Assembly: GCA_965198225.1 (NCBI GenBank)
Contig: CBDAOY010000007.1
Span: 990,045-1,054,044 of the forward strand
Direction of reading: 5' to 3'
DNA from: Terriglobia bacterium
GTDB taxonomy: Bacteria; Acidobacteriota; Terriglobia; 20CM-2-55-15
Length of the DNA: 64,000 bases
Of this stretch, positions 40,389-60,734 are shown one piece after another (within the stretch, counting starts at the first letter, position 1; each line of letters begins with the position of its first letter). The notes under the pieces are model-generated. The model ran no database searches, was not told the origin of the DNA, and saw only the letters and a program-made list of their open reading frames with translations. The position numbers and the translations under genes were made by a program.

Positions 40389-40424
40389 ATAAAATAGGGA
40401 CAGACTCCTGTGTCCCTATTTTAT
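40389..40424. repeat. inverted repeat ATAAAATAGGGACAG-N-CTGTGTCCCTATTTTAT
   Basis: It shares the GGGACAG...CTGTCCC core with the palindrome family. It sits at the promoter of the glycosyltransferase pair. Confidence 0.5.
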
Positions 40425-40448
40425 CGGCAACATTTTGAACCACTTAAA

Positions 40449-41150
40449 ATGCCGGCTATGAAGATCTCTGTCATCATCCCAGCCTACAACGAAGCGGACC
40501 AGATCGGGCTGACACTGGACGCCGTCCACGCCGCAGGCCTTGATGACGTTCTGGTGGTCGACGGCGGCAGTGCCGACGAAACGGTTCTGCACGCACAGGC
40601 CGCCCGGGTGACGACGATGGAGGGTCCCCGGGGAAGGGCGAGCCAGATGAACGCCGGCGCGCGAGTCAGCAGCGGGGAGGTCCTGCTGTTTCTCCACGCC
40701 GACACGCGCCTGCCGCCGGACGCGGGCCGGCTTGTCGAGAACGCCCTCGCGGACGATCGCGTCCTCGGTGGTGCCTTCCACCTGCGATTCGACTCCGGCG
40801 GCTGGCTCATGCGTCTGGTGAGCTTCCAGACCAACGTGCGTTCCTACATTCTCGCCCCCTGGGGGGATCAAGCTCTTTTCGTCCGCCGCACCTTCTTCCT
40901 CGAAACCGAAGGCTACCGGCAATGGCGCTTGATGGAGGACGTCGAAATGGCTCATCGCATCAAGAAGAACGGACGATTCACAATGATCCGGACCCCGGTG
41001 GTGACTTCCGGTCGACGATTTCGCGAGCAAGGCTTCATCCGAAACGGAGTCCGCAACCAGATGCTGATGGCGGCATACTATGCAGGCATTGCGCCGGACC
41101 GCCTGGCTCGATTCTATTCCTATGACCGGCGAACAAGAGAGGAACGCTGA
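40449..41150 (+). CDS. GT2-family glycosyltransferase, TIGR04283-like (rSAM/selenodomain-associated 'transferase 2')
   Basis: It has ISVIIPAYNEA and VLVVDGGSADET. It is paired with a DUF2064 gene with a 1-nt overlap. Confidence 0.75.
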   Translation: MPAMKISVIIPAYNEADQIGLTLDAVHAAGLDDVLVVDGGSADETVLHAQAARVTTMEGPRGRASQMNAGARVSSGEVLLFLHADTRLPPDAGRLVENALADDRVLGGAFHLRFDSGGWLMRLVSFQTNVRSYILAPWGDQALFVRRTFFLETEGYRQWRLMEDVEMAHRIKKNGRFTMIRTPVVTSGRRFREQGFIRNGVRNQMLMAAYYAGIAPDRLARFYSYDRRTREER

Positions 41151-41830
41151 TGAAGGCGCCGCTGGCGACCTCGCTTGTCATCATGGCCAAGGCGCCACGT
41201 GCCGGCCGCACGAAAACGCGCCTGTTTCCCGCTTTGACCCCTGATGAAGCCGCCGGTTTGTATCGGTCGATGTTGCTGGACACGATCGAGCGGCTCCGTT
41301 CGCTGTCCGGGTTCGAGCTCTGGCTGGCATTCACGCCGGAGGACGAACGGGCCTGGTTCGAGACGAACATCGATCCGCCGATCCCGTTGATGCCTCAGCG
41401 GGGCGACGATCTGGGCCAGCGTATGCACCACATCGTCGAAGACAGGTGCTCCGATGGAGCTGAAGCTGTGCTGCTCGTCGGAACCGACCTGCCCACGCTT
41501 CCCGCCGACTATGTGCGTCAGGCGGCGGATTTACTGCACGAGGACGACAGGGTCGTCCTCGGCCCGACCGAAGACGGGGGCTACTACCTGATCGGATTGT
41601 GCGAGCCGGACATCCGTCTGTTCGAACGAATCGAATGGAGCACGGATTCGGTCTTCCAGCAGACCGTCTGTCAGGCCGAGGCGGCAGGAAAGTCCGTCTC
41701 GACGGTTCCGTCCTGGTTCGACATCGACGAGCCTGCCGACCTCGAACGTCTCCGGAGCGCGCTCGAACACAGCGACGAGCAAACCCATCCCCCGCACACC
41801 GCGAACTTTCTGGCGTGTCTCGGAGGCTAG
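41150..41830 (+). CDS. DUF2064 / TIGR04282-like glycosyltransferase-like protein ('transferase 1')
   Basis: The N-terminal LVIMAKAPRAGRTKTRL...LYRSMLLDT is the DUF2064 signature. Confidence 0.75.
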   Translation: MKAPLATSLVIMAKAPRAGRTKTRLFPALTPDEAAGLYRSMLLDTIERLRSLSGFELWLAFTPEDERAWFETNIDPPIPLMPQRGDDLGQRMHHIVEDRCSDGAEAVLLVGTDLPTLPADYVRQAADLLHEDDRVVLGPTEDGGYYLIGLCEPDIRLFERIEWSTDSVFQQTVCQAEAAGKSVSTVPSWFDIDEPADLERLRSALEHSDEQTHPPHTANFLACLGG

Positions 41831-41869: not shown

Positions 41870-42511
41870 TCACTCCTCCGCTCCCGAATCTCCTTCAGTT
41901 GCGTCCTCCGTGAACTCCGCCAGCGAACGTCGCGCCATCTGTGTCAGCAGCACGGCGACGATCACGGTAGCACCGAGCCCGAACCAATAGAGGACGGTTT
42001 CTCCGGTCGTGGCCTCGCGTTGACCCGACAACATTTCCGCAATGTTGAAAGCGACGGACCCGATGTAGACGTACATCGCGGTGGCAGGGAACATTCCCAG
42101 AAAAGACGCCAATACATAGTCACGCAGGCGGACCCGCGTCAGGCCCAGCGAATAGTTCAGGAAGACGAAAGGAAAGACGGGCGACAGGCGGAGGAGTGTG
42201 ATCAGCTTGAATCCCGATTCTTCCGCGGCCTGGTTCAGCCGGTCGAGGAACGGCTGATTGCGGATCCGCCGCTCTATCCGGTGGCGGAACGCGGTACGAA
42301 CGAGTAGAAACGCGATCGTCGCGGCCAGGACGCTCACGGGAGAAACCAGAGCCGTTCCGAGAATCGGCCCGTATATGAATCCGGCGATCAGCGTCATCGC
42401 AGAGCCTGGAATCAGGGCGATGGTTGCAACTACGTATATAAGTGCGAAAGCGAGGGGACCGATCCAGCCCAGACCCCGGATCGTTTCGACAGCGATTATG
42501 ATCCAGTCGTC
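41870..42511 (-). CDS. DedA/TVP38/TMEM64-family membrane protein
   Basis: It has the SNARE-associated motif GFIYGP. Confidence 0.7.
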   Translation of the reverse strand, partial: DDWIIIAVETIRGLGWIGPLAFALIYVVATIALIPGSAMTLIAGFIYGPILGTALVSPVSVLAATIAFLLVRTAFRHRIERRIRNQPFLDRLNQAAEESGFKLITLLRLSPVFPFVFLNYSLGLTRVRLRDYVLASFLGMFPATAMYVYIGSVAFNIAEMLSGQREATTGETVLYWFGLGATVIVAVLLTQMARRSLAEFTEDATEGDSGAEE

Positions 42512-42623
42512 CATGAGTAAGTGGCCACCAGGCCATATCGCGCATGGCTTGCGCACGAACTCGACGTGGGCCATCGGCGTGAAGAAAGCGCCCGGCTCCA
42601 CAAATGTCGCCGGGTGCGGCCTA

Positions 42624-45077
42624 TCAGCAGCACTCGCCGGGTTCGCAACACTCAACGCTGGACAGCGCCGCGTCAGCATCCTTGGCCATCACCAGGAAAG
42701 ATCCCGCGTAAGGCTCTCGCGACAGTTTCGCAGCGGTATCGGTGCACACCTGGACGGGTTCGTTTCGGGGAAAGAGGTGGCCTTCCTCGTCGACGACCGC
42801 CTTCAGCGGGCCCAGATAGACGGCGCGCTGGCCTTCGAAGTTGCACACTCCGTTCTTCCCGAACTTGAAGCCCTGGATGATCAGCGAGTAGAAACGGTAG
42901 CCTTCGATCTCTTTCCAGAAGGTTTTCTCGACGAGCGACAGGCCGTAGAAACCCACCTGCTCGAGCATGGCGAAGTATTCATCTTCGGTCAGTGCTCCCG
43001 AGACGCACTCTCCCCACAGCCGGGGGTTGGCTTTCATGTGGTGGGGAATCTTCGATTCGGACACCGTGTCGGAGATGATCGCGCGGCCGTGATTCTTCAG
43101 AACCCGCCACATCTGCGAAAGTACGCGGCGTTTATCGGGCGAAAGGTTGATCACGCAGTTGGACGTCACGATATCGGCCTTCTGATCCTCCAGCGGAAGC
43201 TGTTCGAGGTATCCGCGCCGGAATTCGACGACGTCGTACCCGAGGGATTCGGCGACGATGCCCCGATTCCGTTCGGCCCGCTCGATCATTTCCGTCGTCA
43301 TGTCGATGCCGATCACACGACCGCTGGACCCGACGCGCTGTGCCGCGATAAAGCAGTCGATACCGCCTCCCGAACCGAGATCGACGTATGTTTCGCCCGG
43401 CTTGATGTCGGCGAACCGAATCGGGCTGCCGCAGCCGTAGGACACCTCGACGACTTCCTTCGGCAGTGCCCGAAGCTCGGCGGGGTCGTAGGCGGTCGGA
43501 CAGCACAGCGCTTCCTGAGGCTCGACGGCCGCCTGGGCGTAGAACTGGCGGACTTTCTCACGCGATCGTTCCAAGTCGACGGAGAGGACGCACGTGGAAC
43601 GGGATGTGGCGATCTCGAACCCCTCCGCTTCAATGGTTTCCATCTCAGAAAGCGATTCACCCATCGCGGCCACGACGGTCGGGGAATCGTATCCGGATGG
43701 GCCCTCATGGCTCTTGTTCTCAGAGGCGATCTGCTCGATCGCTCGGAGCAGCAGCCATTCGTGAACCTTCGAAAACGGGTCTTTTCCAAGGACGGTGCCG
43801 GAGTAGAAGAATGAATGTTCGACGTCACCGCCGCCGCACACGTAGCGCAGGTAGCATTCCTGACAGTCTTCTTTCGCGATGACGCTGGCTCGGCGCAGCG
43901 CGCGCGCGCGCGCGGATGTTTTCCAGATTTCCGCCAGCGGCTGTTCCTCGACGTTGCCCATAAGCAGTTCGGGGACACCGGCCAGCGCCGCGGAAGGATA
44001 GACGGTGCCGTCCGCGTAGACGCAGCAGCTGCTCGTGGCCGCGACCGACAGGTCCATCTTGACCCCGCGTCGGCCCTGAGCCCTTTCCCGGGCGACCTCG
44101 TAGTTGTCGAGCTCGATTCCCTTCGAAGATGCGTTTTCCAGGTATCGTTCCAGCATCTCGATGATGTCGGCGGTGAACGGACTCTGCATCTGGTCGTCTT
44201 CCAGAGCCCTGCCCTGTTTGTGGTCCCACAGCAGGTGATGACGCCGGACGCCGAGTTTGTCCAGGAACTCCGGGAATCGAGGAAGCGTGTCGAGGTTCGA
44301 GCGAGTCACGACAGTGGACACGGTCGGTTCAAACGCGGCGTCCAGCAGGGCGCCGATGCCTTCGACGGTTCGCTCGAACCCGGATCCGCGGATCGCGTGG
44401 TGGGTCTCGCGGTCGGGTCCGTCGATGCTGACCTGTAGGGCCACGTTGCCGTTCGCGGCGGCTTTGAGATTGGCCAGGGTATCGCCCCGGAAGAACATGG
44501 CGTTGGTCAGGATGACGAGTTCGCTGTCGGTGCAGATGGCCCGAACGATGTCGATCAGGTCGCGCCGTAAGAACGGCTCTCCACCGGTGATGTAAAATTG
44601 CCGAACACCCATCTGTTTCGCGTCGTCGACGATCTTCAGCCATCGATCAGTTGGAAGTCCCTCGATCCCTTTCGGGGAAGAATCCACGAGGCAGTGGGCG
44701 CAAGTCAGGTTGCAGCGGTTCGTCAGGTGCAGCCACATCTCTTGCGGCTCGTGGCGCTCGATCAACGCCCCGCGACCCGGATAGGTCGGGTGCTGGAACG
44801 GCTCGCTTCTCAGGAAGTCGGTCCGCAGTGCATGGTTGAGCAGCGTGCTGACGTCGAGCCAGGCTTCGGCCCAGTCCTTGCCCGCGTGGGACCGGTAGCG
44901 GCCCACAAGGTCCGAGACCCTCCGCTGTCCGTCGATCCAGCCGAGTATTTCGACGCCCGCTCGGTTCGTCACGATCCAGTTTGGCGCCTCGGGGTCGAAC
45001 ATCAGTCCGAATTCTCCGATCAGCCGCTCTTCGTAACGTGGGGGCGCGTGAAGTACCTGTTCAGGCAAGATAGTCAT
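42624..45077 (-). CDS. fusion protein: PqqD/RRE-like N-terminus + radical SAM (CxxxCxxC) + Cys-rich/SPASM-like domain (ArsS-like) + complete ArsM-type arsenite S-adenosylmethyltransferase
   Basis: The rSAM motif is TNRCNLTCAHC. The Cys-rich region is SSCCVYADGTVYPS...CQECYLRYVCGGGD. The ArsM half has LCCPTAY, YGCGSPI, VDLGSGGGIDCF, SNCVINLSPDK and LWGECVSGAL, with all four conserved ArsM cysteines present. The start has an AGGAGA RBS. Confidence 0.8.
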   Translation of the reverse strand: MTILPEQVLHAPPRYEERLIGEFGLMFDPEAPNWIVTNRAGVEILGWIDGQRRVSDLVGRYRSHAGKDWAEAWLDVSTLLNHALRTDFLRSEPFQHPTYPGRGALIERHEPQEMWLHLTNRCNLTCAHCLVDSSPKGIEGLPTDRWLKIVDDAKQMGVRQFYITGGEPFLRRDLIDIVRAICTDSELVILTNAMFFRGDTLANLKAAANGNVALQVSIDGPDRETHHAIRGSGFERTVEGIGALLDAAFEPTVSTVVTRSNLDTLPRFPEFLDKLGVRRHHLLWDHKQGRALEDDQMQSPFTADIIEMLERYLENASSKGIELDNYEVARERAQGRRGVKMDLSVAATSSCCVYADGTVYPSAALAGVPELLMGNVEEQPLAEIWKTSARARALRRASVIAKEDCQECYLRYVCGGGDVEHSFFYSGTVLGKDPFSKVHEWLLLRAIEQIASENKSHEGPSGYDSPTVVAAMGESLSEMETIEAEGFEIATSRSTCVLSVDLERSREKVRQFYAQAAVEPQEALCCPTAYDPAELRALPKEVVEVSYGCGSPIRFADIKPGETYVDLGSGGGIDCFIAAQRVGSSGRVIGIDMTTEMIERAERNRGIVAESLGYDVVEFRRGYLEQLPLEDQKADIVTSNCVINLSPDKRRVLSQMWRVLKNHGRAIISDTVSESKIPHHMKANPRLWGECVSGALTEDEYFAMLEQVGFYGLSLVEKTFWKEIEGYRFYSLIIQGFKFGKNGVCNFEGQRAVYLGPLKAVVDEEGHLFPRNEPVQVCTDTAAKLSREPYAGSFLVMAKDADAALSSVECCEPGECC

Positions 45078-45254: not shown

Positions 45255-45588
45255 TTATCCCGGGCGTCGACGCATCTCTTCCCGGGTGATGAATCCATCA
45301 TCGTCCGCGTCGAGGCGGTCGAAGGCCTCAGTCGGTCGGGTCCACTCGTCACGAGAAACCTTGCCGTCGCCGTCTTCATCCATCTGGAGCATCGCGGCTC
45401 CCCGGCCACGTCCGCCTCTGCCCGGGCGGGAGTTCTGCATCTCTTCGAGAGTGATGAAGCCGTCGCCATCGGCGTCCATGGTCTCGAACATCTGCGCGGG
45501 ACCCGGAAACTCCTGCTGCGACACGCGTCCATCGCCATCGCTGTCGAGCCCCTGGAAACGGGCTTGAGGGTCTGCGCCTCTTCCGCCT
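45255..45588 (-). repeat. downstream copy of an exact ~310-bp tandem duplication. It encodes a now out-of-phase extra EF-hand segment (...DADDDGFITREEMRRRPG*).
   Basis: Region 45301-45590 is 100% identical to 45611-45900. At the junction the upstream copy carries 2-bp and 7-bp deletions, which create a TAG stop at 45589-45591. Confidence 0.7.
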
Positions 45589-46746
45589 CTATCCCGGGCG
45601 TCGCCATCTCTTCCCGAATCCATCATCGTCCGCGTCGAGGCGGTCGAAGGCCTCAGTCGGTCGGGTCCACTCGTCACGAGAAACCTTGCCGTCGCCGTCT
45701 TCATCCATCTGGAGCATCGCGGCTCCCCGGCCACGTCCGCCTCTGCCCGGGCGGGAGTTCTGCATCTCTTCGAGAGTGATGAAGCCGTCGCCATCGGCGT
45801 CCATGGTCTCGAACATCTGCGCGGGACCCGGAAACTCCTGCTGCGACACGCGTCCATCGCCATCGCTGTCGAGCCCCTGGAAACGGGCTTGAGGGTCTGC
45901 GCCTCTTCCGCCTCTGCCGCGGCCGCCCCCGAATTGCCGCTGGATTTCGTCACGAGCGAGGAGACCATCATCGTTTCGATCGAGCCGGTCGAACGTCTCG
46001 CCGTCGCCCGTCCACTCTTCCCGTGAGATTGTACCGTCCTCGTTCGTGTCCATGACGCCCATACCGCCCGCAGTCCCGGGCCTCTGCCCCGGCCGAGGGC
46101 GCATACCACGCATGCCGCGGCCGCGACGCTGTCCCTGTTCCTGTCCGTAGGCGGTGATCTCCCCTCTGAGAGCGACCTCGAGCGCTGCCCTGGCTTCGGG
46201 GACATCGAACCCGGCCGGCCCGGGGCGTCCCTTGAAGGCGATGGTGCCGTCGGAGCCCACGACATAGATCCGGTCGGGAAACGCGGCGTACGCATTCGCC
46301 GTCCGGTCGTCGATCTTGTCCAGAATGGTCGGCATCGAGATGTCCAAGGCGGTCGTACAGATGTTGGCTGCTTCCTGGCGCTGCTCGTCGGTTTTGGCTT
46401 GTTCGATCAGGATGCCGTCGATAACATTCGCCGCTCCGAGGTTGCCGTCGGTGGGATGCGCTTCTCGAATGTAGACGAAGAAGAAATTGGCGCGGTCCTT
46501 GTAAGCCTGGTACCAGTTTTCGATGTCCACGACATCGCGGCGGAACGGGCCTCAGGTATAGCTGGCGAAGATCAGCGCGGTCGGTCTGCCCGTCATCTCA
46601 GAAAGCGTAATCTTTTGCTTTCCGTCTTTTGTACTGAGCGTGAAATCAGGCGCCGTATCTCCAGGCGTGGGGCCGCCGCCTCGCCGCTGGGCCGTGGCAG
46701 GGCTCACCAGGACGAGGACCAATAACGCAGACGCGAATGTTCTCAT
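45589..46746 (-). CDS. selenoprotein: iodothyronine-deiodinase-like thioredoxin-fold domain (Sec encoded by UGA at 46552-46554) fused to a C-terminal EF-hand repeat array; secreted
   Basis: It has a signal peptide (MRTFASALLVLVLVSPATAQ) with a GGAGGA RBS. APDFTL...RPTALIFASYT-[TGA]-GPFRRD...FFFVYIREAHPTDG matches the deiodinase motifs FGSxT-U-PPF and FLxVYIxEAHPSDGW. The hairpin GAUGUC-GUGG-GACAUC lies 15 nt after the UGA. There are at least six DxDxDG EF-hand loops. Confidence 0.7.
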
Positions 46747-46843
46747 GGGTTTACTCCTCCGTCGACTATAGACAGGGCGGAGCGGCACGGGTTTAAGAGC
46801 GTTTTCAAATCGAATGAGGACCGCGTCCAGCGGTACGAGCTAG

Positions 46844-47016
46844 CTTCAGCCCCCTCCGCCAAGGAGGAAGCCTCCTGCGGCGCCGCGCGCTGTTCCCGAC
46901 GCCAGGTCTCCCAGGAGCAGACCGCCTATTGCGCCGACAACGGCAAACACCGCGATCGTGCCCATCTTGGCTGCTGCGGACTTCTTAGCGCAGCTTTGTT
47001 CTTCGTTCTCTGTCAC
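46844..47016 (-). CDS. small glycine-zipper membrane protein (~57 aa, GTG start); not in the ORF track
   Basis: Manual translation gives ...MGTIAVFAVVGAIGGLLLGDLASGTARGAAGGFLLGGGG*. Confidence 0.3.
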
Positions 47017-47558: not shown

Positions 47559-47864
47559 ATGCCTCGAAACTACATGACATATCCGTCCGGTCTGGTCCTG
47601 CAGGCAATCGCTTCGGGGCATCGGTATGGTTTCGATGTGATGGATGTGACGGGATTGCCGAGTGGTACGGTTTACCCGGCACTTCGGAAGCTGGAACGAG
47701 AGGGCTATGTCCGTTCCAGGTGGGAAGGCGAAGATGTGGCCCGCCAGGCAGGGCGTCCACCGCGGCGTTACTACGAGGTTAGCGGCCCTGGCTCGGCGGC
47801 CTTGACCCAGCTGCTGAAACGGTTTCCAGGACTGGCCCGGGCCCTTGCCGCGGAGGTCTTGTGA
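47559..47864 (+). CDS. PadR-family transcriptional regulator
   Basis: It has the winged-helix motif GYDV...GTVYPALRKLEREGYV. Confidence 0.85.
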   Translation: MPRNYMTYPSGLVLQAIASGHRYGFDVMDVTGLPSGTVYPALRKLEREGYVRSRWEGEDVARQAGRPPRRYYEVSGPGSAALTQLLKRFPGLARALAAEVL

Positions 47865-48452
47865 GGTGGGCAGGCGGCGAGCGGTCTCTCCGCGTCTGCC
47901 TGTTGTGGATTCGCGCTCTGTCGTTCCTCGTCCCGCCCCCGGGCCGGGACGAATGGATGCGGGAGTGGCGTGGCGAGCTTCTGCATCACTGGAGTGAGTT
48001 CGAGACAGGAGTTCAAAAGTCCCGTGCTGCAAGATTCGATTTGTTCCTACATTCGATGGGCGCCTTGCCTGATGCACTGTGTCTGCTGCGTCAGGAGTGG
48101 AGACTGGACATGCTGATGCAGGATCTGACCTATGCGGTACGGACGCTCGGCGCTCGACCGGGCTTCACCTTCGTAGTGATTTTCATTCTGGCGCTGGGTA
48201 TCGGGGCCAACACCGTCGTGTTCAGCGTCGTCGATGCCGTCCTGTTTCGACCCCTACCGTTTCCCGAGCCGGAGAGGCTGGTTGCGATCTGGGACGAAAA
48301 CACCCAAAAGTCGATGCTTCGTCAGGGTCCGGCGCCCGGCAATCTGCTGGACTGGCGTGACCAGTCACGGGTGTTCGATGGTATCGGAGCCTGGTACGCG
48401 GGCGAGCCCAGGACTGTGCGCGACGAGTCCAGTGCGGAGAAAGTGTCCGCCA
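47861..48452 (+). pseudogene. ADOP-type (MacB-like/FtsX) permease, N-terminal ~195 aa only; interrupted by a mobile element
   Basis: DLTYAVRTLGARPGFTFVVIFILALGIGANTVVFSVVDAVLFRPLPFPEPERLVAIWDE is the classic ADOP N-terminus. At ~48450 the reading frame runs into AT-rich foreign DNA and stops (..SATIGFYYV*). Confidence 0.7.
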
Positions 48453-48613
48453 CTATAGGATTTTATTATGTCTAATAATATCCATAAGTCTTATTTATAT
48501 CAACAGTATATCGTCCTAGACAATCCAGCGCCGTCTGGTATAATCCAAGCCTGTTGGGGGATATATTGGGGGAGTGCTGGAGTGCCTCTGCCCCATCGGT
48601 CGAGGGCTCTGCA

Positions 48614-49792
48614 ATGGCCATTCACAAACTCTCCCAACGCAAGGTAGACACCGCCGGTCCCGGCAAATACGAAGACGGCGGCGGGCTCCGCTTGGTGGTG
48701 TCCAATTCAGGCGCCAGGAGATGGGTCCTGCGTTACACCGTCCACGGCAAACGCCGGGAAATGGGTCTGGGCCGTTATCCCGATGTCGGGTTGGCCGATG
48801 CCCGCACGCAAGCGCTACGGCACCGGAGGCAGTTGGCGACGGGCGTAGATCCCATCGCAGCCCGCCGGGCGGCCCCGGAGACGCTACCCACCTTCACCAT
48901 CTGCGCCGCCCGGTATATCCGGGCCCATCGACGGAGTTGGCACAATGCCAAGCACGCGCGGCAATGGGTCCGGAGCCTGAAGACCTATGCCCGGCCCGTC
49001 ATCGGGGCCAAACGGGTCGACGCCATTGAGACTGAAGACATTGTAAAGATACTCTCTTCGATCTGGAACACCAAGACCGAAACGGCCAAGCGCGTGCAGG
49101 GGCGCATCGAAAATGTCCTGGACTTCGCCGCCGCGCACCAATACTGCGGTCCCCTGAACCCGGCCCGCTGGCGGGGCCATCTGGACAAGTTGCTCCCGAA
49201 GCCCTCCCGGGTGAAGCAAGTCACCCACCACCCGGCCATGCCGTATCCCGAGGTGGCGGACTTCCTGCAGGAGCTGTCCGGACACCGGAGTGTATCGGCG
49301 CAGGCGCTGCGGTTTTTGATCCTGACCGCCACGCGCACCAGTGAAGTCTTAGAGGCGCAGTGGCCGGAAATCGATCGGACCGCCGGTATATGGATCCTTC
49401 CCGCCTCCCGGATGAAAGCCCGACGGGAACATCGAGTTCCCTTATCGGATGCGACCCTGGCGGTTCTGGAAGACCTACCCCGCATGGCAGGCCACCCGTA
49501 TGTCTTCGCCGGATCTCGCCACGGACGCCCTCTGTCGAACATGGCCCTACTGAAATTGATGCGAGACATGGGATATTGCGTTGAGGGTTCCCGGGCTCAC
49601 TACGTGCCGCATGGATTTCGCTCCAGTTTTCGGGATTGGTCCGGCGAGGTGTCGAGCTTCCCGCGAGAAGTTGCGGAAATGGCCTTGGCCCACGTGGTGG
49701 AGAACAAGGTGGAAGCGGCCTACCGGCGGGGGGATCTGTTCGCCAAACGGCGCAGCATGATGCAGGCCTGGGCCGACTACCTCAAGAAGTAG
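48614..49792 (+). CDS. tyrosine-type site-specific integrase, phage P4-like (DUF4102 arm-binding N-terminus)
   Basis: It has KLSQRKVDTAGPGKYEDGGGLRLVV and the catalytic R...HGFRSSF...Y motifs. Confidence 0.85.
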   Translation: MAIHKLSQRKVDTAGPGKYEDGGGLRLVVSNSGARRWVLRYTVHGKRREMGLGRYPDVGLADARTQALRHRRQLATGVDPIAARRAAPETLPTFTICAARYIRAHRRSWHNAKHARQWVRSLKTYARPVIGAKRVDAIETEDIVKILSSIWNTKTETAKRVQGRIENVLDFAAAHQYCGPLNPARWRGHLDKLLPKPSRVKQVTHHPAMPYPEVADFLQELSGHRSVSAQALRFLILTATRTSEVLEAQWPEIDRTAGIWILPASRMKARREHRVPLSDATLAVLEDLPRMAGHPYVFAGSRHGRPLSNMALLKLMRDMGYCVEGSRAHYVPHGFRSSFRDWSGEVSSFPREVAEMALAHVVENKVEAAYRRGDLFAKRRSMMQAWADYLKK

Positions 49793-50066
49793 AAGGGCGG
49801 GTGCGCAAGGTCGACGGGCGGCCAACAATTCATGCATTCCGATGATTCCTTGAAGGAGCCCACTGCTTCCGAGGTGTGAAAGAATTCAGGCTGGTGCGGA
49901 TTCGACGCGGAAGTGGTCGGCGGAGTGAAAGGAGATGCGACAGAATCTGAGGATCTACGATTCCCGACCGAACCCCAGTGGGGCTAGTGTAGGCCGTCAC
50001 CAAAGGGCACCGCGGACTCGGTCGATGTGACTTTGATCAGGGAAAATCATGGACGGAACGGGTCCC

Positions 50067-50708
50067 TCAATGGATCGTCGGCTTCTCCACGCCGATGGTG
50101 GACAGTGCGTGTTGGCGGGCTCGCGTGCAGGCAACCACAACGGCATGAAGCTCTTTCTCCGCGATCCGTGAGAGTTCCCGCACGTTCTTGAGGCTCCGCG
50201 CCAGATCCATCTCCGAGCGCGACGATGTTCTCTCCAGACACTCCACCATGCTGTGCATCATGGCGTTGATCTCCCCGAGATTGTCCATGGCTTCGTGAGC
50301 CCGTTCGGGGAGATCCAGCACCTCCTCGGCACCGAACAGGCCGTCGATGAAACCTTCCAGCTCTTCCATGCGGGTGCGGCAGAGGCGACTCAGATCATCG
50401 AGCTCCGCCTTGGCGGCCATCGGTGTCAAACGGAACGGCCGGGTTCCCGATTGATGCTTTGCCAATTCGTTCCAGAGGCCCATGAGAGCCTCAAACAGCT
50501 CGTTGGCGGCAGCGACATCGTCAAACTTCGGCAGTTCTCCTCCCCAGAAAGCTGCTACGGTCGGGAGGGGCGACGCATCAAGATTGGGACTGGCGATGTT
50601 GCCGAGGAAGCGTGTGCGCACGACATGGAATGGAGTCGGACAGGCATAACCGTCCAATAGCCCGCGGACTCGTTCGTCGCCCTGATATCTGTGGGAACGT
50701 TTCTTCAT
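50067..50708 (-). CDS. YecA-like (UPF0149) family protein
   Basis: AAFWGGELPKFDDVAAANELFEALMGLWNELA resembles the UPF0149 N-terminal domain. Confidence 0.4.
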   Translation of the reverse strand: MKKRSHRYQGDERVRGLLDGYACPTPFHVVRTRFLGNIASPNLDASPLPTVAAFWGGELPKFDDVAAANELFEALMGLWNELAKHQSGTRPFRLTPMAAKAELDDLSRLCRTRMEELEGFIDGLFGAEEVLDLPERAHEAMDNLGEINAMMHSMVECLERTSSRSEMDLARSLKNVRELSRIAEKELHAVVVACTRARQHALSTIGVEKPTIH

Positions 50709-50795
50709 GCCCGATTAACTTCCGGCCGGCGTTGTGCCATTTCACCTTGTCCCTGCGGAAGCAGATTAGTCCGAAGAAGTTCGAGAATTTCCCGT

Positions 50796-51380
50796 TTACG
50801 TCCCACAGTTCTGGTAGTCCGAGGCCATACACGTGCGCGCCCACTCAATGGCGCGGCTGATCTGGGCACGGGTCATTTCACGTTCAAGGTTGCCCCGCGA
50901 CTCCTCGGGCCCAACGCCGGCGACGCTGACCCTCCCATTGGCGCTGGCGATATTGAACCACATGTGCGCGAGCACGTCGTCCTCGATGCCGCCCAAGCCG
51001 TTGTAGTACATCAACCCGAGGTTGAACTGCGCGCTCGCGTGCCCCTGCTCGGCCGCCATGCGGTACCATCGCGCCGCTTCCGCATCGTCTTCGATGACAC
51101 CCTCGCCGTGGGCATACATGGTTCCGAGATTGAATTGCGCACGCGCGTCCCCCTGCTCGGCCGCTATGCGGAACCACCGCATTGCTTCACGGTCATCCTC
51201 CATGGCGGCCTCGTCATCGTCGTAGGTGCTCCCGAGGCTGTCCGGCGTATCCGCGTTCCCCTGCTCGTCTTCGGCCTGAAAGCGTCCTGGTTCGTCCTGC
51301 GCCGGAACACATGCCGCGGCCAGCAGCCAGGAGCCGCAGAGCAGTGTCATCGCGATCCATCGGTTACGGTGTTTCTTCAC
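50796..51380 (-). CDS. Sel1-repeat (SLR) lipoprotein
   Basis: The lipobox is LLAAAC. There are three repeats of AxxWYRxAAEQGxAxAQFNLGxMY. Confidence 0.8.
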   Translation of the reverse strand: MKKHRNRWIAMTLLCGSWLLAAACVPAQDEPGRFQAEDEQGNADTPDSLGSTYDDDEAAMEDDREAMRWFRIAAEQGDARAQFNLGTMYAHGEGVIEDDAEAARWYRMAAEQGHASAQFNLGLMYYNGLGGIEDDVLAHMWFNIASANGRVSVAGVGPEESRGNLEREMTRAQISRAIEWARTCMASDYQNCGT

Positions 51381-51620
51381 GGCAGCCTCCCATGTCCTGG
51401 TGATCTTATGCCTTGAGACTGGATCGTCGATTGTAGGCGATCCAGGACGCGACCCTACAAGTACTTGGCGACTCTAGTGTAATGGGATCCGCAGGTTACG
51501 TTGCGTGCCGAACACGGATCACCGCTGGAGTGTGGACACAGCGGAAGGTTCACCGTGCCGACGGACGGGTAAGCCAGCCACCTTGAGCAGGATCATCTTG
51601 GGACGCCATCGGCGGCACAC

Positions 51621-51971
51621 CTAACGTCGGCGGCCGCAGGACACGAATATCTCCACGTCGGCCCTCAGCGCGCGCTCCGTGTTGTGGCTGAAGGCACCCC
51701 GGGCCGCTTTGAAGTAGGCGGCCAGTTGGTCCCCTGCCTCCGCAGCGTATTCAACACGGAACGAGAGCGTTCTCGAGCGGGTTGGTCTGCCCGATCGCCT
51801 TGTGCAGCGTGGCGATGCTGGAGACGTAGCGGCGCACCGTCGCCGGGGCCTTGACGCGCGCCATGTCGTCGATGAAGGCGACCAGGGTGGGGGCGTTGGC
51901 GGGCAACGCCGGCACGACCTGCTGCCGGCAGCCAGGATCTCCATCTCGCATGTCATCTCTGAAATCAGCAT
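51621..51971 (-). pseudogene. tyrosine recombinase N-terminal (SAM-like domain) fragment, frameshifted
   Basis: There are two overlapping frames (...LVAFIDDMARVKAPATVRRYVSSIATLHKAIG... and ...AAYFKAARGAFSHNTERALRADVEIF...). No catalytic domain follows. Confidence 0.3.
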
Positions 51972-52007
51972 CGGGCGGCCTCCGGTTCAGTCGAAAAAGG
52001 CCGCGAA

Positions 52008-52042
52008 TTTTACTCGCGATAATTCCAGTTATCGCGAGTAAA
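52008..52042. other. perfect inverted repeat TTTACTCGCGATAA-ttccag-TTATCGCGAGTAAA
   Basis: Seen directly. It lies next to the recombinase fragment. Confidence 0.6.
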
Positions 52043-52611
52043 GCCCCGAGATAACGCTTTCCTCGCCGTTGATCACACGGCGCGGCGGATTTTTTTCGAT
52101 CCGGCGCCTGCTGCCCATCAGCTCAGGGGGGGCGGGACGCAACGAGGTCTGTCTACCGAACGGGGGAGTTGTGGTGCCTTCTACGGCCCGAATGAGCGCG
52201 ACCAGATATCGCCAGCGAACCGGAGAAAGGGACATCGACTTGGCAGAACACCGTGAAATCGCGGCGTCACGCGTCACAGGGATAGACACGAAAGCGGTGG
52301 CGAAGGACTGAGGTGGCCGTATCGATACGGTCGTGGCGGCGCGCTCACCCGCAGCCGTGGCTGCGCCGATGATTTGTCCATGGGGCGATCCGCCGCGTGA
52401 CCGCAAGCCGCTGGCGATGAGTGCCTGCCCGGTTCACGGAAATCGGGCTATGGGCTCTGCCGTGCAGCGCCGCCCGCCTGTTCCGTGCCGAGCCCGTTGG
52501 CAGGACATGAGCAGTTTCGCCGCCGATACCGTCGATCAACGTGCGACCGTCATCACCGGTCCCCGGGTGTCGGTCCGCGGACGTCAATTCACAAGGGCGA
52601 CGCGCTACCGC

Positions 52612-53751
52612 ATGCGCGTGCTCTCTTTTTCGCTGCAAGGCCTTAAAACCGGGTTATTTCTGCTATTCGCATCACTGCTGGCCGTGTCGGCGCCGATTCA
52701 GGCCAGCGCGCAGGCGAACAGCCCTCCGGCGGTGACGGGGCCAACCAGCGTCGACTACGCCGAGAACAGCGAGGAGACGGTGGCCACGTATATCGCTACG
52801 GACCCGGAGGCCGAAGCAATCGCGTGGAGCGTGTCCGGGACGGACCATGCGCTGTTTTCCATCACTGCGGGTGTCCTGGAGTTCCTGAGCCCGCCGAACT
52901 ACGAGAGGCCTATCGACGAGGGCGAAGACAACGCGTATGAGGTGGGCGTCACGGCCACGGATTCCTCCGGGGCGGCCGCCACCGTTGCGGTCACCGTGAC
53001 GGTAACAGACGTCAACGACCCGAACATCGTCCTCATCATGGCGGACGATGTCGGTTATGAGGCCTTTGGGGCATACGGTAGCGCACAGTACAGAACGCCG
53101 CGAATTGATGAGCTTGCAGCCGCGGGAGTTCGCTTCACGAACGCTTACTCAAACCCGGTATGCACCCCGAGCAGAGTTGCCTTGATGACGGGTAAGAGCA
53201 GTGTCAGGAACTATGTGGATTTCGGAGTTCTACTCCCCGGAGAATACACGATTACTGATCTCTTTAGTGGGGCCGGATACGCAACGGCCATCGCCGGAAA
53301 GTGGCAGCTTCACGGTAGTGTCGTAGGTAGTGACGTAGTGGCTGGTGTCCCTGCCGGAACCGGATTCGACACGTATTCCTTGTGGAATACAGCCAACACG
53401 GGTCGTAGTCGCTACTGGAATCCTTCCATCGAACGCGACGGTGAAATCATCGATCTGGGCAGCGAGGATTACGGGCCCGACATATTCACGAATTTCCTGC
53501 TGGAATTCATAGAGTCCAACAGAGATAAACCGTTTTTCGCCTACTACCCGATGGTGCTTCCTCATGATCCGTTCGGCTCGCCGCCGCAAGCCCAATGCGT
53601 CGATACCGCTGACGGACAGTGCAATTTCGAGGACATGGTCGCGTATCTCGATTACAACGTCGGCCGCATACGCGACAAGCTGGCGGACCTGGAGCTACTC
53701 GACAACACAATCCTCATATTCACCTCCGACAACGGAACTCACGCACGCTGA
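52612..53751 (+). CDS. giant surface protein, segment 1: signal peptide + cadherin-like domain + sulfatase N-terminal half
   Basis: It has a signal peptide (LFLLFASLLAVSAPIQASA) and a cadherin repeat ending VTDVNDP. The sulfatase motifs are IVLIMADDVGYE and the formylglycine site CTPSRVALMTGK. The frame ends in TGA at 53749-53751, inside a cacgcacgc repeat. Confidence 0.75.
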   Translation: MRVLSFSLQGLKTGLFLLFASLLAVSAPIQASAQANSPPAVTGPTSVDYAENSEETVATYIATDPEAEAIAWSVSGTDHALFSITAGVLEFLSPPNYERPIDEGEDNAYEVGVTATDSSGAAATVAVTVTVTDVNDPNIVLIMADDVGYEAFGAYGSAQYRTPRIDELAAAGVRFTNAYSNPVCTPSRVALMTGKSSVRNYVDFGVLLPGEYTITDLFSGAGYATAIAGKWQLHGSVVGSDVVAGVPAGTGFDTYSLWNTANTGRSRYWNPSIERDGEIIDLGSEDYGPDIFTNFLLEFIESNRDKPFFAYYPMVLPHDPFGSPPQAQCVDTADGQCNFEDMVAYLDYNVGRIRDKLADLELLDNTILIFTSDNGTHAR

Positions 53752-56700
53752 TCTGATTTCAGAACTCGGGGGAGAAATGATCCATGGGGATAAGAACATG
53801 CCCAACAATGGCGGCACGCGGGTACCGCTGATAGTCAGCGTTCCAGGAGGTGAGGGGGGACGGGTGTTCGACGACCTGATCGACTTCACCGACTTTCTCC
53901 CGACTCTGGCTGATGCGGCAGGTCTTACGATTCCTGACGTCAATATGCTGGACGGCGTGAGTTTTTGGGACAGGCTTCAAGGCCGAACCGGCCAACCGCG
54001 GGAATGGATATATACCTATTACTTCCCACGTCCGTTCGCCGATAGGTTCGACAATCCGCAACGTCATCCAGAGGCGTCGTATGTCCGAGACAAGCGGTAC
54101 CAGCTCTACGGAACAGGAGAGTTCTTCGACATTTCCGTAGACCCTCACCAAGTGCATCCGTTGCCGAGTGACGATGAAGAGTCCAGCGCCGCCCGTACCA
54201 AGCTGCAAGCGGTTCTCGACTCGATGCCGGGGAGAGGTGAGGAGATTTACCCATATTTGATAGGAACTGTCCCGGACTCTGAGCCGCGCCCGCGATGGCG
54301 GCCCGTCCTGTCGAAAGCAACTGTGAACGGCGGCCAATTGACGCTCACTTACGCCGGAATTCTGGACTCAAGAGAAGCGCCTCCCGCAGATTCCTTCATT
54401 GTGAACGTTGATGGTTCCGAGCGTGCGGTCTCCACAGTTTCGATAAGCAAAACAGCGGTTACGCTTACACTCGCTTCGGCGGTTACAGTTGGCCAGACGG
54501 TGACGTTGAATTACACGCCGGGAACGAATGCGATTCAGCACGCGAACAGGCCATTCGGGCACAAAGCGGCACCCCTGGTTCGCCAAGGGGTGACGAACAA
54601 CACTGTGGACACGACGGCGCCGGCGGTGTTGTCGATCACGAGCGACGCGACGCACCCGACGAAGAACGCTTTCACGGTGACGATAACCTTTTCGGAGGAG
54701 GTGAGGGGACTCACGGCGGGGGAGATCGCGGTCACCAATGGCACGGGCTCGAACTTTGCGGGCACAGGCGCGAGCTACATGCTCGACATCGAACCCAGCG
54801 ACGATATCGAAGCCGACGTGACGGTCCGGGTTCCGGCCGATGCGGCGATGGACGCCGCGAACCTCGGCAACATCGAGGGGATCGAGACCTTCGCGGTGGA
54901 CACCCAGGCGCCGGCGGTGTTGTCGATCACGAGCGACGCGACACACCCGACGAAGGATGCTTTCAGGGTGACGATCACCTTTTCGGAGGCGGTGACGGAG
55001 CTCACGTCGCAGGATATCGCGGTCATGAACGGAGTGGGCTCGAACTTCGCGGGCACGGACGCGCGCTACACGCTCGACATCGAGCCCAGCGCCAATACCG
55101 AAGACGATGTGACGGTCCGGGTTCGGGCCAACGCGGCGGTGGACGGCGTGAACATCGGCAACGTCGAGGGGATCGAAACCTTTGCGGTGGACACCCAGGT
55201 GCCGAGGGTGTTGTCGATCACAAGCGACGCGGCGCACCCGACGAAGGATACTTTCACGGTAACGATCACCTTTTCGGAAGAGGTGACGGGGCTGACGGCG
55301 AGTGAGATCGTGGTCAGCAATGGCCGTGGCTCGAACTTCGCGGGCACGGGCGCACGCTACACGCTCGACATCGCTCCGAACGCCAACCTTGAAGCCGATG
55401 TGACGGTCCGGGTTCGAGCCAACGCGGCGGTGGACGGCGCGAACAACAGCCACGTCGACGAGGGCGAGACCTTCGCTGTGGACACGCGGGCACCGGTGTT
55501 GATGAGCGCTGCGGTGGATGGCGACACGCTGACGCTGAGCTATGGGGAGGCGCTGGGCAACCCGACACCGGAGCCGGGCGATTTCACGATGAATGTGGAG
55601 AGCGCTGGGCGGAGCGTTTCCAGGGTGGCGGTGAGCGGAAGAGCGGTGACTTTGACGCTTGCCTCGGCCGTGGCGCATGGCGAGACGGTGAGAGTGAGCT
55701 ACAGCCCGGGGACGAACCCGATCCAGGACGCGGTGGGCAACCAGGCTCTGGGACTGAGCAACGCGTCGGCCACCAACACTACGGATGCACCCAACACGGA
55801 TCCGATGATCACGAGTCCGGGGCCGTTCAATGTCACTGAGAATCAAGCGCGGGTGACCCGGCTGATGGCGGCCGACGCCGACCCGGGGGACGAGGTCACC
55901 GGCTATACGCTTGTCGGCGGAGCCGATCGGGCCCAGTTCACGGTCGGTGAGGATACCGGAGATCTGGGCTTCCGGGCGGTTCCGAACTTTGAAGCGCCCA
56001 CGGATGCCTTCAGTAACGATCCGCCAAGTGGGGCAGGAGACAACGAGTACATCGTGGTGGTCCAGGTCAGCAGCGGGGCAGGAACGCGGGTGCGGACGGC
56101 GGAACAGACGATTCGCGTGCGGGTGAGTGACGTGGAGGAGCTTCCAGCGGCGCCGGAGGAGCCGACTTTTCCGAGGGCGACGCCGGACAGCCTGACGGTG
56201 GCGTGGACGGAGCCGGACAACACCGGGCCGCCCATCACCGGCTATGACGTGCAATACCGGGAAGGCGTCAGCGGCGGCTTCACGGATGCGCCGCACTCCG
56301 GGACGGCCCAAACCACAACGCTCATGGGGTTGAGCGAGGGCACGGCCTACCAGGTGCAGGTGCGGGCGAGGAACGCGGAAGGAACAGGTGACTGGTCGGA
56401 GCCGGGCGAAGGACGGACCGTGGCCCCGCTGAGGGTTCGGATGACGCCGGAGCTGGAGCCGCCGGTGGAGGGCCCGTTCTCGGTGAGGTTCAGCTTTTCG
56501 GAGACGGTGACGGGTTTCAGCGGAAGCGACATCGAGACGGGTCAGGACCTTGCCTGCATGGACGATCAGAACAACCCGGTGTTCTGCAACCCCGGCTTTG
56601 CGGCATTCGAGACCACGGATAGCCGGGTCTTCACCACCCGCGTGACCCCGAGGACCGGCGGGGTGGCCAATAACTACAAGCTCACGCTCACGGTGCGTGC

Positions 56701-58837: not shown

Positions 58838-58873
58838 ACGGACGCGCCTGACAGGCTAGGCGACGGCGTCGCC

Positions 58874-59803
58874 ATGAGCTTCGAACCGGGCGTCGACGCC
58901 CAACGCGGGAGAGCCCGAGTCAGGGGGGCACGGACCACGGCATGCCTGGACGGTTCACGGCGCGCCGGCGGTAGACATCCGATCCGTGGACACCGTGGGC
59001 CGGGGGCGCCCCCGGATGCATACCGGAGGCCGGCGGGGGTCCATCATGCCTGGGATGACTGTGATGTCGATGTTGCCGTGCTCGGTCGCGTGCCTCGTCG
59101 CAGCCGGCATCCGCGGTGTTGCGGAATGGCTCCACGCGTTGAGGCTCGACGACAGCTCGCGCTGGCTGGGCCCATCCTCCGAAAACCTCTGCTATCCGTA
59201 TCGCGAAAGGCGCTGGCCTCCGGCGAGCCGGAAGATCCCCCCGGCTGGGAACGGATCTATGAAGGCTCGTTCCTGGAAGCAGCGCTGGTCACACAGCTTT
59301 CCGGCGACTTTCCCGGCCCGGTGCTGGCCGTGGTTTCGGTGCCCTTTTACTCGGCAGACCGGCAGCGGATTTTAGTCCCGCGAGGGGCGCGAGTCGTGGG
59401 CACGGCTCAGGCCGTGGCGAATCAGGACCAATCGCGCCTTGCCGTCAGTTTCCACCGTTTGATCTATCCGGACGGGCGTTGGGTGTCGCTGGAATTCAAC
59501 GGCCTCAATCAGGTCGGCGAGGGAGCCTTGAAAGATCAGGTCAACCGCCATTACCTATCCACGTTCGCCGCAGTCGGCGCGGTCGGCATCCTGAGCGGGC
59601 TGACCTTGCGCGGCTCCAATCCCTATGGCGGCGGGCAGCAGAGCCTTCAGGCTGGGGCCGGACAAGGGCTCGGCCAGGCCGCGACGCGCATCCTGGATCG
59701 TTTCCTGAATCGTTTGCCCACCCTCACCATTCGGGCCGGGCATCGGCTTCGCGTTTGGTTCACTTCCGACGTGCTGGTTCCCCGGCCCCAACAAGGAGAT
59801 TGA
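58874..59803 (+). CDS. VirB10/TrbI-family protein, C-terminal core domain only (possibly truncated)
   Basis: The C-terminal ~190 aa is LAVVSVPFYSADRQRILVPRGARVVGTAQ...RLIYPDGRWVSLEFNGLNQVGEGALKDQVNRHY...PTLTIRAGHRLRVWFTSDVLV. The upstream ~100 codons are Arg-rich and not protein-like, so the true start is uncertain. Confidence 0.55.
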   Translation: MSFEPGVDAQRGRARVRGARTTACLDGSRRAGGRHPIRGHRGPGAPPDAYRRPAGVHHAWDDCDVDVAVLGRVPRRSRHPRCCGMAPRVEARRQLALAGPILRKPLLSVSRKALASGEPEDPPGWERIYEGSFLEAALVTQLSGDFPGPVLAVVSVPFYSADRQRILVPRGARVVGTAQAVANQDQSRLAVSFHRLIYPDGRWVSLEFNGLNQVGEGALKDQVNRHYLSTFAAVGAVGILSGLTLRGSNPYGGGQQSLQAGAGQGLGQAATRILDRFLNRLPTLTIRAGHRLRVWFTSDVLVPRPQQGD

Positions 59804-59804
59804 A

Positions 59805-60722
59805 ATGAAAATGTACCGAAAAGCCTTCACCGTTGTTGTCATGGTTCCGATCCTCATCATGCTCACCACCACGCCCGCGCATGCCCTCTTCGGCTCGATC
59901 CTTGCGGGCATCCAACGCGCCCAGATGATCGCCAATCAGGGGATCCAGATCTACAAGGACACAATGGCGAAGATCACCCTGGACGGCCAATTGACCCAGA
60001 TGACGGATCAGTTCAACCACCTGCAAGAACAGGCGCTCGGAAGTGTCGGGGCGCTCACCGATCCGTTTACGCAGTTGGCTTCGGTGCCGACGCAGTTCAT
60101 CGGCGTGGGTCTCGCGTGGAAGAACGATTTTACCGGCGTTGCCGCGGAGCTTGTCTCGTCGGTGGAACAGATGGGCGAAACCGGCACGAGCTTTACCGAG
60201 TCGTGGCGTGATCGGCTCACCGCCGCCGACACGGTGACTGAGAGCGACATCATTGGTCTGTACAACTCTCAGCGGCCCGAAATGGCCCAGAGAGCGGCAC
60301 GGGGCTACCTTGCGGCGCGAGAGGAAGGCGAGAAACGCCTGGTCCTCGATCACGCCACGAGCGATGCGGCGGCGAATCTCATGATTGCGGCGCGTGAGGC
60401 TGTGGCCTCCTACGAAGGACTGCGAAACAACACCAATACTTCCAACACCGCGCTCGCTCAATCGCAGGTGGCCGGGACCCTGACCCAGGGGAACCTCACC
60501 GCGGCCATGGCGCAGTTGATGGCGTTCGATACAGCAAAGGCGGCAGCGGAAGATTACGAACGCGAGATCGCCCGGCGCGACGCGCTGGCGGAATGGGTCG
60601 AGGCCCAGCGCCGCGCGCGCGTCACCTTCGACGCGCAACAGGCCGGGCTCGATGCCCGGCGCGATGCGATGCGGGAAGGGTTGCTCTTCCAGATTCATCC
60701 GTTCTATCGCGGCGGGAACTAA
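59805..60722 (+). CDS. TrbJ/VirB5-like secreted conjugal transfer protein
   Basis: It has a signal peptide, is helical and Q/A-rich, and sits in the position before the trbL-like gene. Confidence 0.5.
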   Translation: MKMYRKAFTVVVMVPILIMLTTTPAHALFGSILAGIQRAQMIANQGIQIYKDTMAKITLDGQLTQMTDQFNHLQEQALGSVGALTDPFTQLASVPTQFIGVGLAWKNDFTGVAAELVSSVEQMGETGTSFTESWRDRLTAADTVTESDIIGLYNSQRPEMAQRAARGYLAAREEGEKRLVLDHATSDAAANLMIAAREAVASYEGLRNNTNTSNTALAQSQVAGTLTQGNLTAAMAQLMAFDTAKAAAEDYEREIARRDALAEWVEAQRRARVTFDAQQAGLDARRDAMREGLLFQIHPFYRGGN

Positions 60723-60734
60723 CCCGGTACGCCG

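Follow-up and report, generated by a model that had tools for sequence, protein, structure and literature searches.

The question raised by the locus described here is whether an in-frame TGA ends a gene or is read as selenocysteine (Sec) within one. It lies on the minus strand of a stretch of Terriglobia bacterium DNA (assembly GCA_965198225.1, contig CBDAOY010000007.1, positions 990,045–1,054,044), 64,000 nt in length and referred to below as the window, whose coordinates are used throughout. A preliminary description of this DNA proposed an exported deiodinase-like selenoprotein with a C-terminal array of calcium-binding EF-hands, and a hairpin resembling a bacterial Sec insertion sequence (SECIS). 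This core reading is supported by the comparison of TGA with Cys among relatives, by constraint at the RNA level, and by the ranking of the deiodinases Dio3 and Dio2 in sequence and structure searches. Gene structure, fold family, the correspondence of Sec with Cys, and conservation of the hairpin together with its RNA-level constraint can be regarded as established. For the explanation as a whole (a single exported 385-residue selenoprotein, its UGA read as Sec by means of the hairpin) we estimate a probability of about 0.85; that the product is a Sec-containing deiodinase-like protein with an EF-hand tail is, if anything, slightly more certain than this.

Gene structure and reading frame

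Read directly from the sequence, the minus-strand frame from 46788 to 45589 is open throughout, except for the TGA at 46554–46552. That a TGA splits one gene, with the frame open on both sides, was therefore correctly described, and the motifs quoted for it (APDFTL, ALIFASYT-TGA-GPF, and FFFVYIREAHPTDG) are all found. The start proposed at the time, a GTG at 46788, was not borne out: an ATG at 46746, behind GGAGGAG at 46760–46754, is the likelier one. From this ATG to the TAG at 45589, the read-through product is 385 residues long. A basic N-terminus, a hydrophobic core, and a small-x-small cleavage-type motif have equivalents in all orthologs, and the protein is predicted to be exported via a cleavable signal peptide. 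The features of the gene, all on the minus strand, are as follows, with the basis for each in parentheses.

46754–46760, minus strand: Shine-Dalgarno-like GGAGGAG, 7 nt before the ATG (read from the sequence)
46690–46746, minus strand: start codon ATG (46746–46744) and predicted export signal peptide of the Sec type, MRTFASALLVLVLVSPATA followed by Q, residues 1–19 (sequence)
46162–46668, minus strand: thioredoxin-fold domain of the iodothyronine deiodinase family, residues 27–195 (Pfam PF00837, PDB matches, AlphaFold2 (AF2) model of ortholog P0005)
46552–46554, minus strand: in-frame UGA, predicted Sec codon, residue 65 (TGA in 18/18 orthologs; Cys in full-length homologs)
46521–46537, minus strand: predicted bacterial SECIS core (comparative hairpin analysis, folding energy)
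46063–46161, minus strand: Gly/Arg/Gln-rich linker, residues 196–228, predicted disordered (composition; low model confidence in the ortholog)
45592–46062, minus strand: EF-hand tail, residues 229–385, three loop pairs (Pfam EF-hand families and regular-expression scan)
45589–45591, minus strand: stop codon TAG, made at the junction of a tandem duplication (sequence; comparison with relatives)
45255–45588, minus strand: second, untranslated copy of the ~334-nt 3'-terminal segment (repeat comparison; out of frame with the gene)

Conservation of the TGA and of the coding sequence around it

Orthologous DNA was collected from eight metagenome-assembled genomes of Terriglobia/Solibacteraceae, from soil and other metagenomes, and by exact look-ups, giving 18 distinct sequences (designated L below, with protein records designated P). 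Two complete Terriglobia chromosomes, OZ252023.1 and OZ253536.1, are among the carriers of orthologs. At the position of the window TGA, all 18 have TGA, over a range of 45–97% protein identity and two architectures. Both upstream and downstream of it, amino acids are conserved while third codon positions vary. The second clade (L018–L022), at 45–49% identity, also has TGA. Members of this clade have no EF-hand tail; in its place is an N-terminal domain of ~200 residues, without a Pfam match.

A protein search returned ~20 clusters with the same layout of deiodinase domain and C-terminal EF-hands (P0001–P0020), every one of them starting past the TGA. Gene callers have put the start of this downstream piece at six different positions, which means that no start codon is conserved for it. 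There are also full-length homologs (400–445 residues) with Cys aligned to the TGA, for example in the sequences FGNFTCGPFR and FGSCTCPPF; Cys is found at the Sec position in P0021, P0022, P0025–28, P0032, P0034, and P0038. Alignment to such homologs had been suggested as a check on the selenoprotein interpretation, and between them the 18 TGA orthologs and the full-length Cys homologs have Cys or TGA at this position. One JGI gene call (Ga0611942_0822029, at 132–890 of L003) has Trp at the TGA of its ortholog, and so hides a selenoprotein; because the DNA reads TGA where the call gives Trp, an alternative code appears to have been applied to this short contig.

The SECIS-like hairpin

The sequence C-GAUGUC-GUG-GACAUC-G (46537–46521), starting 14 nt after the UGA, makes a hairpin with a 7-bp stem (46537–46531 with 46527–46521) and a 3-nt apical loop, GUG (46530–46528). 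As previously described, the hairpin is real, and its GAUGUC begins 15 nt past the UGA; the sequence typed there, though, had one G too many. The GTG of the loop is also the start chosen by the open reading frame (ORF) finder for the downstream 313-residue ORF. The hairpin fits the published bacterial SECIS (bSECIS) model (PMC13188914, Fig. 2), with its 3-nt loop starting G[G/U], a 7-bp stem, and a distance of 21 nt from UGA to loop. The folding energy of the UGA-proximal 42 nt (the UGA plus 39 nt) is -11.7 kcal/mol. Rfam, searched at gathering thresholds over the whole window and with permissive E-values near the UGA, yielded only a tRNA-Ser and a chance snoRNA match; it holds no general bacterial SECIS model.

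Among the orthologs a hairpin is predicted in nearly all cases, with loop variants GUG, GGU, GGG, and GGC. In the 13 distinct 48-nt sequences compared, 98.9% of stem cells are paired. One stem pair goes from G-C to G-U, and in the second clade there is one compensatory change, from A-U to G-C, accompanied by substitution of the encoded Asp by Gly and Ile by Thr. Third codon positions were compared over 83 codons of the 18 orthologs, from -35 to +49 with the TGA and one Trp codon excluded. The only invariant ones are in stem codons +5, +6, +7, and +9; codon +10 is nearly so (17/18). Codon +5 swaps its residue (Arg, Ala, or Gly) but retains the C that pairs with a G of codon +11. By a hypergeometric estimate, the probability that all four invariant sites would fall within the five stem codons is ~3 in a million. 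Since the invariant third positions are confined to stem codons, there appears to be selection on the RNA beyond that on the protein.

The deiodinase-like domain

Residues 27–190 match Pfam PF00837 (T4_deiodinase) with 85.5 bits (cutoff 27; E = 4.5e-24; profile positions 74–234 of 237); there are weak Pfam matches to AhpC-TSA and Redoxin as well. By sequence (phmmer), the best PDB matches are mouse Dio3 (4tr3, E = 1.7e-17) and Dio2 (9h48, E = 1.1e-11). The same two structures lead a Foldseek search with the AF2 model of P0005, 4tr3 (TM to target 0.75) ahead of 9h48; next come exported thiol-disulfide oxidoreductases of the ResA/TlpA/DsbE type and 1-Cys peroxiredoxins. The predicted local distance difference test (pLDDT) score of this model is >90 over most of the deiodinase domain and <50 in residues 174–203, equivalent to the linker; its EF-hand pair is moderately confident.

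The deiodinase active-site pattern noted earlier is present, as S62-Y-T64-U65-G-P-F and Y92-I-R-E95-A-H97-P-T-D-G. The roles assigned to Dio3 residues (PMC11592359) and their counterparts in the window protein are listed below.

Dio3 Ser167 (proton relay): Ser62, conserved
Dio3 Thr169 (proton relay): Thr64, conserved
Dio3 Sec170 (catalytic): Sec65, conserved
Dio3 Tyr197 (proton relay): Tyr92, conserved
Dio3 Glu200 (proton relay): Glu95, conserved
Dio3 His202 (proton relay, also substrate site): His97, conserved
Dio3 Trp207 (stacks on His202): Asn102, not conserved
Dio3 His219 (proton relay): Ala/Pro117, not conserved
Dio3 Arg275 (clamps the thyronine carboxylate): Pro175, not conserved

A further residue, Cys130, is invariant in both Sec clades. 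With a Cys-type relative as query, the deiodinase-like domain proves to be common, with 1,277 cluster representatives at E ≤1e-10; the best 150 of the 1,277 matches are in proteins of ~130 to ~1,190 residues, with many architectures. It is, in other words, a widely used module.

The EF-hand tail

Pfam EF-hand_1, 5, 6, and 7 all score above their cutoffs in the tail. At least six DxDxDG loops had been counted in the preliminary description; a regular-expression scan found six, with RGG-type linkers between them.

46050–46015, minus strand: DxDxDG loop
45981–45946, minus strand: DxDxDG loop
45870–45835, minus strand: DxDxDG loop
45801–45766, minus strand: DxDxDG loop
45705–45670, minus strand: DxDxDG loop
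45636–45601, minus strand: DxDxDG loop

Five of the six are canonical (D-x-[DN]-x-[DN]-G-x5-E, with Glu12); the sixth, DADDDGFGKRWR, is without Glu12 in the window copy only. The joining of EF-hands to a deiodinase-like domain has happened twice independently, at the C-terminus here and at the N-terminus in the NCBIfam family NF038285, and for this reason the connection with Ca2+ is probably no accident. The tail probably ties folding, stability, or activity of the protein to external Ca2+.

Paired tandem canonical 12-residue DxDxDG loops are also found in the XopAW effector family (NF041410) and in lanmodulin (NF053806), but in the window protein they form the tail of an enzyme. Membership of the tail was rejected for both families, with scores of 57.6 bits for XopAW (cutoff 120) and 40.7 bits for lanmodulin (cutoff 135). 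Lanmodulin EF loops have Pro at position 2, and the loops of the window protein have no such Pro.

The state of the sixth loop goes with a rearrangement: the 3'-terminal ~334 nt of the gene are present twice in tandem, and over 300 nt the copies are 100% identical (45291–45590 vs. 45616–45915). Only one copy, ending with a TAA stop, is present in L001 (a close relative, with 99% DNA identity) and in L004 (likewise close). In the window, two deletions, of 7 nt and 2 nt, lie close to the end of the upstream copy, which is the translated one, and a TAG has been made at the junction: the protein ends in DADDDGFGKRWRRPG, compared to DADDDGFITREEMRRRPG in the relatives, and its sixth EF-hand loses Glu12. 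The second copy is intact (EF-hands 3 to 6, ending FITREEMRRRPG), but out of frame and untranslated. An exact look-up of the 313-residue C-terminal product of the window matched no other contig on record, so the duplication allele is without independent support; it arose either recently, in this strain, or through an error of assembly.

Alternative readings of the UGA

The simplest alternative is that the UGA is a true stop, leaving either a broken gene or a 64-residue secreted peptide followed by a 313-residue protein that starts at the hairpin-loop GTG. Every database calls it so, with P0001–P0020 all beginning past the TGA, and TGA is an ordinary stop in this genome: it is the commonest one in the window, where 23 of the 49 ORFs with 120 codons or more end in it, for which reason the genetic code is taken to be standard and a genome-wide reassignment of TGA was rejected. 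A stop would, however, have been kept in 18 sequences, some with as little as 45% identity, between two stretches under purifying selection; the protein downstream would be missing strands beta-1 and beta-2 and the active site of its fold, its called start varies between orthologs, and full-length homologs have Cys where the stop would be. This reading is very improbable. That the TGA is a misread or misassembled TGC or TGT has next to no probability: the perfect tandem repeat and small deletions toward the end of this gene do resemble an assembly oddity, but the codon is TGA in independent ENA, NCBI, and JGI assemblies.

Several points nevertheless weigh against the explanation favored here, beginning with the machinery for Sec insertion. 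Neither the 64-kb window nor related loci totaling ~200 kb yielded genes for selA, selB, selD, or tRNA-Sec, as covered by a tRNA scan of the window, Pfam searches of 29 ORFs of at least 120 codons and a few shorter neighbors, and tRNA scans of 19 related loci. Their presence in the source genome is assumed, and the sole support for the assumption is the literature record of Acidobacteria among Sec users (PMC1794560, Table 2). The UGA could conceivably be read through without selenium, inserting Cys by means of a tRNA-Sec-like tRNA-Cys or some other residue by an “allo-tRNA”-type suppressor; unusual tRNAs of Acidobacteria have been proposed as nonsense suppressors, and Cys-inserting mimics of tRNA-Sec are on record in other bacteria (PMC5389517). 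With these odd tRNAs on one hand and literature-only support for the machinery on the other, non-Sec readthrough keeps a small chance of being correct. It does not account for a conserved hairpin that fits the SelB-dependent bSECIS model in loop and spacing (PMC13188914), at a position that is the catalytic Sec/Cys of a family with established bacterial selenoproteins (PMC1088965); and were Cys inserted anyway, it would be difficult to see why a whole clade has kept UGA instead of a Cys codon. A scan of the window for a second gene with an in-frame TGA gave only shadow-frame artifacts, and was uninformative since its filter also missed the known gene.

The remaining points of this kind concern the hairpin and the protein. 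The hairpin is short, and its folding energy alone (-7.2 kcal/mol) narrowly misses the model's limit of -7.5. The 60-nt region is not stabler than shuffled sequence (z = -0.74), and because thermodynamic significance was not shown over these 60 nt the case for the hairpin was rested on comparative evidence. There, the covariation amounts to a single evolutionary event and is weak when taken alone, and part of the stem conservation is at the protein level, since the stem overlaps a conserved D-V-x-D-I. The structural model is that of an ortholog in whose sequence Trp stood in for Sec. Cys130 is not kept in all of the Cys-type homologs, and no conserved partner gene adjoins the selenoprotein gene across clades. 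Finally, the thyronine-binding residues of Dio3 (Trp207, His219, and Arg275) are not conserved; without their equivalents no substrate can be named, and thyronine is not expected to be one.

Possible mechanism and function

If the UGA is decoded as Sec, translation would begin at the ATG at 46746, and at the UGA (46554–46552) the 17-nt hairpin would act as a bacterial SECIS, recruiting SelB with Sec-tRNA(Sec); Sec would enter as residue 65, and elongation would continue to the TAG at 45589. After export and signal cleavage, the predicted product would consist of a thioredoxin fold (helix alpha-1 starting at Sec65), a disordered linker, and three EF-hand pairs serving as extracytoplasmic Ca2+-binding sites. 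Sec65 would presumably be a nucleophilic selenolate, like its counterparts in deiodinases and peroxiredoxins, and might attack an electrophilic atom, either an aromatic-ring halogen or a peroxide oxygen. A thiol, perhaps that of Cys130, could then resolve the oxidized selenium, and a periplasmic thioredoxin of the TlpA/ResA type could re-reduce the enzyme. The best hint for recycling by thioredoxin is L022 (1–2137), which has a lipoprotein signal and, upstream of its Sec-type deiodinase domain and fused to it, a TlpA-like redoxin domain with the motif WCAPC.

A redox enzyme recycled by a thioredoxin-like partner is, on present evidence, a reasonably likely description of the protein, but any particular substrate is doubtful. 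One with an outside chance of being right is that of an extracytoplasmic deiodinase-type reductive dehalogenase of soil Acidobacteria, acting on natural halogenated phenolics and gated by Ca2+ via its EF-hands. Were this so, it would be the first calcium-controlled selenoenzyme, and a second bacterial route to reductive dehalogenation, independent of corrinoid cofactors; the repeated joining of EF-hands and deiodinase domains (C-terminal with Sec, N-terminal with Cys) would then reflect a real functional coupling.

Relation to known systems

Deiodinase-like proteins have been recognized as a prokaryotic selenoprotein family since 2005, from the Sargasso Sea (Zhang et al., 2005; PMC1088965), and are listed in reviews with the motif UxxC (PMC9312934, PMC13188914). 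The window protein resembles them in its PF00837 domain, its catalytic Sec with a bSECIS just past the UGA, its Cys homologs, and presumably its redox activity. It differs in having U-G-P-F, without Cys at +3, as do all of its orthologs; in this respect it is nearer to the animal T-U-P-P-F than to the UxxC of the family. Further differences are its signal peptide, its tail of six EF-hand loops, and its origin in soil Terriglobia, not marine plankton.

NF038285 (“deiodinase family protein”, a hypothetical equivalog) likewise describes an exported protein with EF-hands and a deiodinase-like domain. The deiodinase half of the window protein aligns to profile positions 174–344 of 347, about half of the profile, and at 247 bits the protein stays below the cutoff of 250; true members score 389–537 bits over positions 2–347. 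The members P0025, P0027, and P0022 have the opposite order, with N-terminal EF-hands and a C-terminal deiodinase domain, and have Cys in place of Sec (FGNFTCGPF).

With Dio1–3 (4tr3, 9h48), the window protein shares the fold, Sec in the context S-x-T-U-x-P-F, the insertion edge Y-I-x-E-A-H-P-(S/T)-D-G, and the equivalents of Ser167, Thr169, Tyr197, Glu200, and His202. Identity is however only ~28%, and the thyronine contacts Trp207, His219, and Arg275 are missing. Dio1–3 have an N-terminal membrane anchor where the window protein has a cleavable signal peptide and an EF-hand tail, and their SECIS is in the 3' untranslated region rather than within the coding region. ResA/TlpA/DsbE and the 1-Cys or atypical 2-Cys peroxiredoxins are also exported proteins of thioredoxin fold, but the window protein has no CxxC, has the deiodinase-specific insertion, and has Sec for Cys.

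The layout had been described as novel. This holds in part: a literature search found no paper on a deiodinase-like Sec protein with a C-terminal EF-hand tail, and NCBIfam has no model for a deiodinase domain with C-terminal EF-hands, but the family itself has been known since 2005 and NF038285 already pairs EF-hand and deiodinase. It is the EF-hand-tailed Sec layout that is new; the exported enzyme kind is already known in bacteria. Nothing is overturned, in that this kind of system was known beforehand, but the deiodinase-like selenoprotein family is extended to an exported form with a calcium-binding array. Every database consulted truncates the protein at the UGA or mistranslates it, and correction would improve the annotation of Terriglobia. 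The two EF-hand fusions of opposite order, together with the TlpA fusion of L022, offer testable hints (Ca2+ dependence, a thioredoxin-type reductant) for the function of the family.

Gene neighborhood

The genes downstream of the selenoprotein gene, on the same strand, are as follows.

42624–45077, minus strand: 817-residue fusion of a radical SAM/SPASM protein and an ArsM-like methyltransferase, ending CCEPGECC, directly downstream of the selenoprotein gene
41870–42679, minus strand: VTT/DedA membrane protein
41150–41830, minus strand: TIGR04282 glycosyltransferase, above family cutoff
40410–41150, minus strand: TIGR04283 glycosyltransferase, above family cutoff

NCBIfam families related to the 817-residue fusion have Sec-Sec in their tails. 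The preliminary description placed the selenoprotein gene beside a set of radical SAM/selenodomain-associated genes, and the TIGR04282 and TIGR04283 members of this set are real; NCBI however now describes these as arsenosugar-biosynthesis glycosyltransferases, and the adjacency is found in one clade only. The neighbor order is kept in L001, L002, and L004–L007, at 78–100% identity. In L008–L011 and L018–L022 the neighbors are unrelated, with none common to one another.

These neighbors allow a different view of function, in which the protein works with the adjacent organoarsenical (arsenosugar-type) genes, for example in periplasmic reduction of an arsenic or selenium intermediate. Its gene is directly upstream of the radical SAM/SPASM and ArsM-like fusion and on the same strand, with the VTT/DedA, TIGR04282, and TIGR04283 genes coming next, and six of the relatives have kept this order. 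The orthologs with unrelated neighbors argue against such a role, as does, weakly, a promoter-like site between the selenoprotein and fusion genes; moreover, the products of the partner genes are cytoplasmic or membrane proteins, whereas the selenoprotein has a signal peptide. An arsenosugar connection is thus rather improbable.

Immediately upstream of the selenoprotein gene, and on the same strand, 46846–47016 encodes a 56-residue Gly-rich predicted membrane protein without a family match, also kept in L001, L002, and L004–L007. Beyond this, the region 47559–63345 begins with a PadR regulator, followed by a 204-residue fragment (47861–48475) with no Pfam match; its relatives in L005 and L007 are also found behind PadR. 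A phage-type integrase (48554–49792) and the conjugation genes TrbI (58874–59803), TrbL (60735–61736), and VirB8 (61394–62404) are part of the same region, which has the appearance of an integrative conjugative element, with its insertion at a distance of ~1.8 kb from the selenoprotein gene. Inside this putative mobile element, 53564–58837 encodes a 1,757-residue repeat protein (fn3, Big_12, and SWM domains, with a sulfatase-like N-terminus), beside a sulfatase gene at 52333–53751. The ~99% identical relatives L001 (8248–9492) and L002 (113–1357) have a Transposase_mut insertion sequence just ahead of the small gene that lies before the selenoprotein gene. VirB8, TrbL, and further transposases come next in L001, and the region is rearranged relative to the window.

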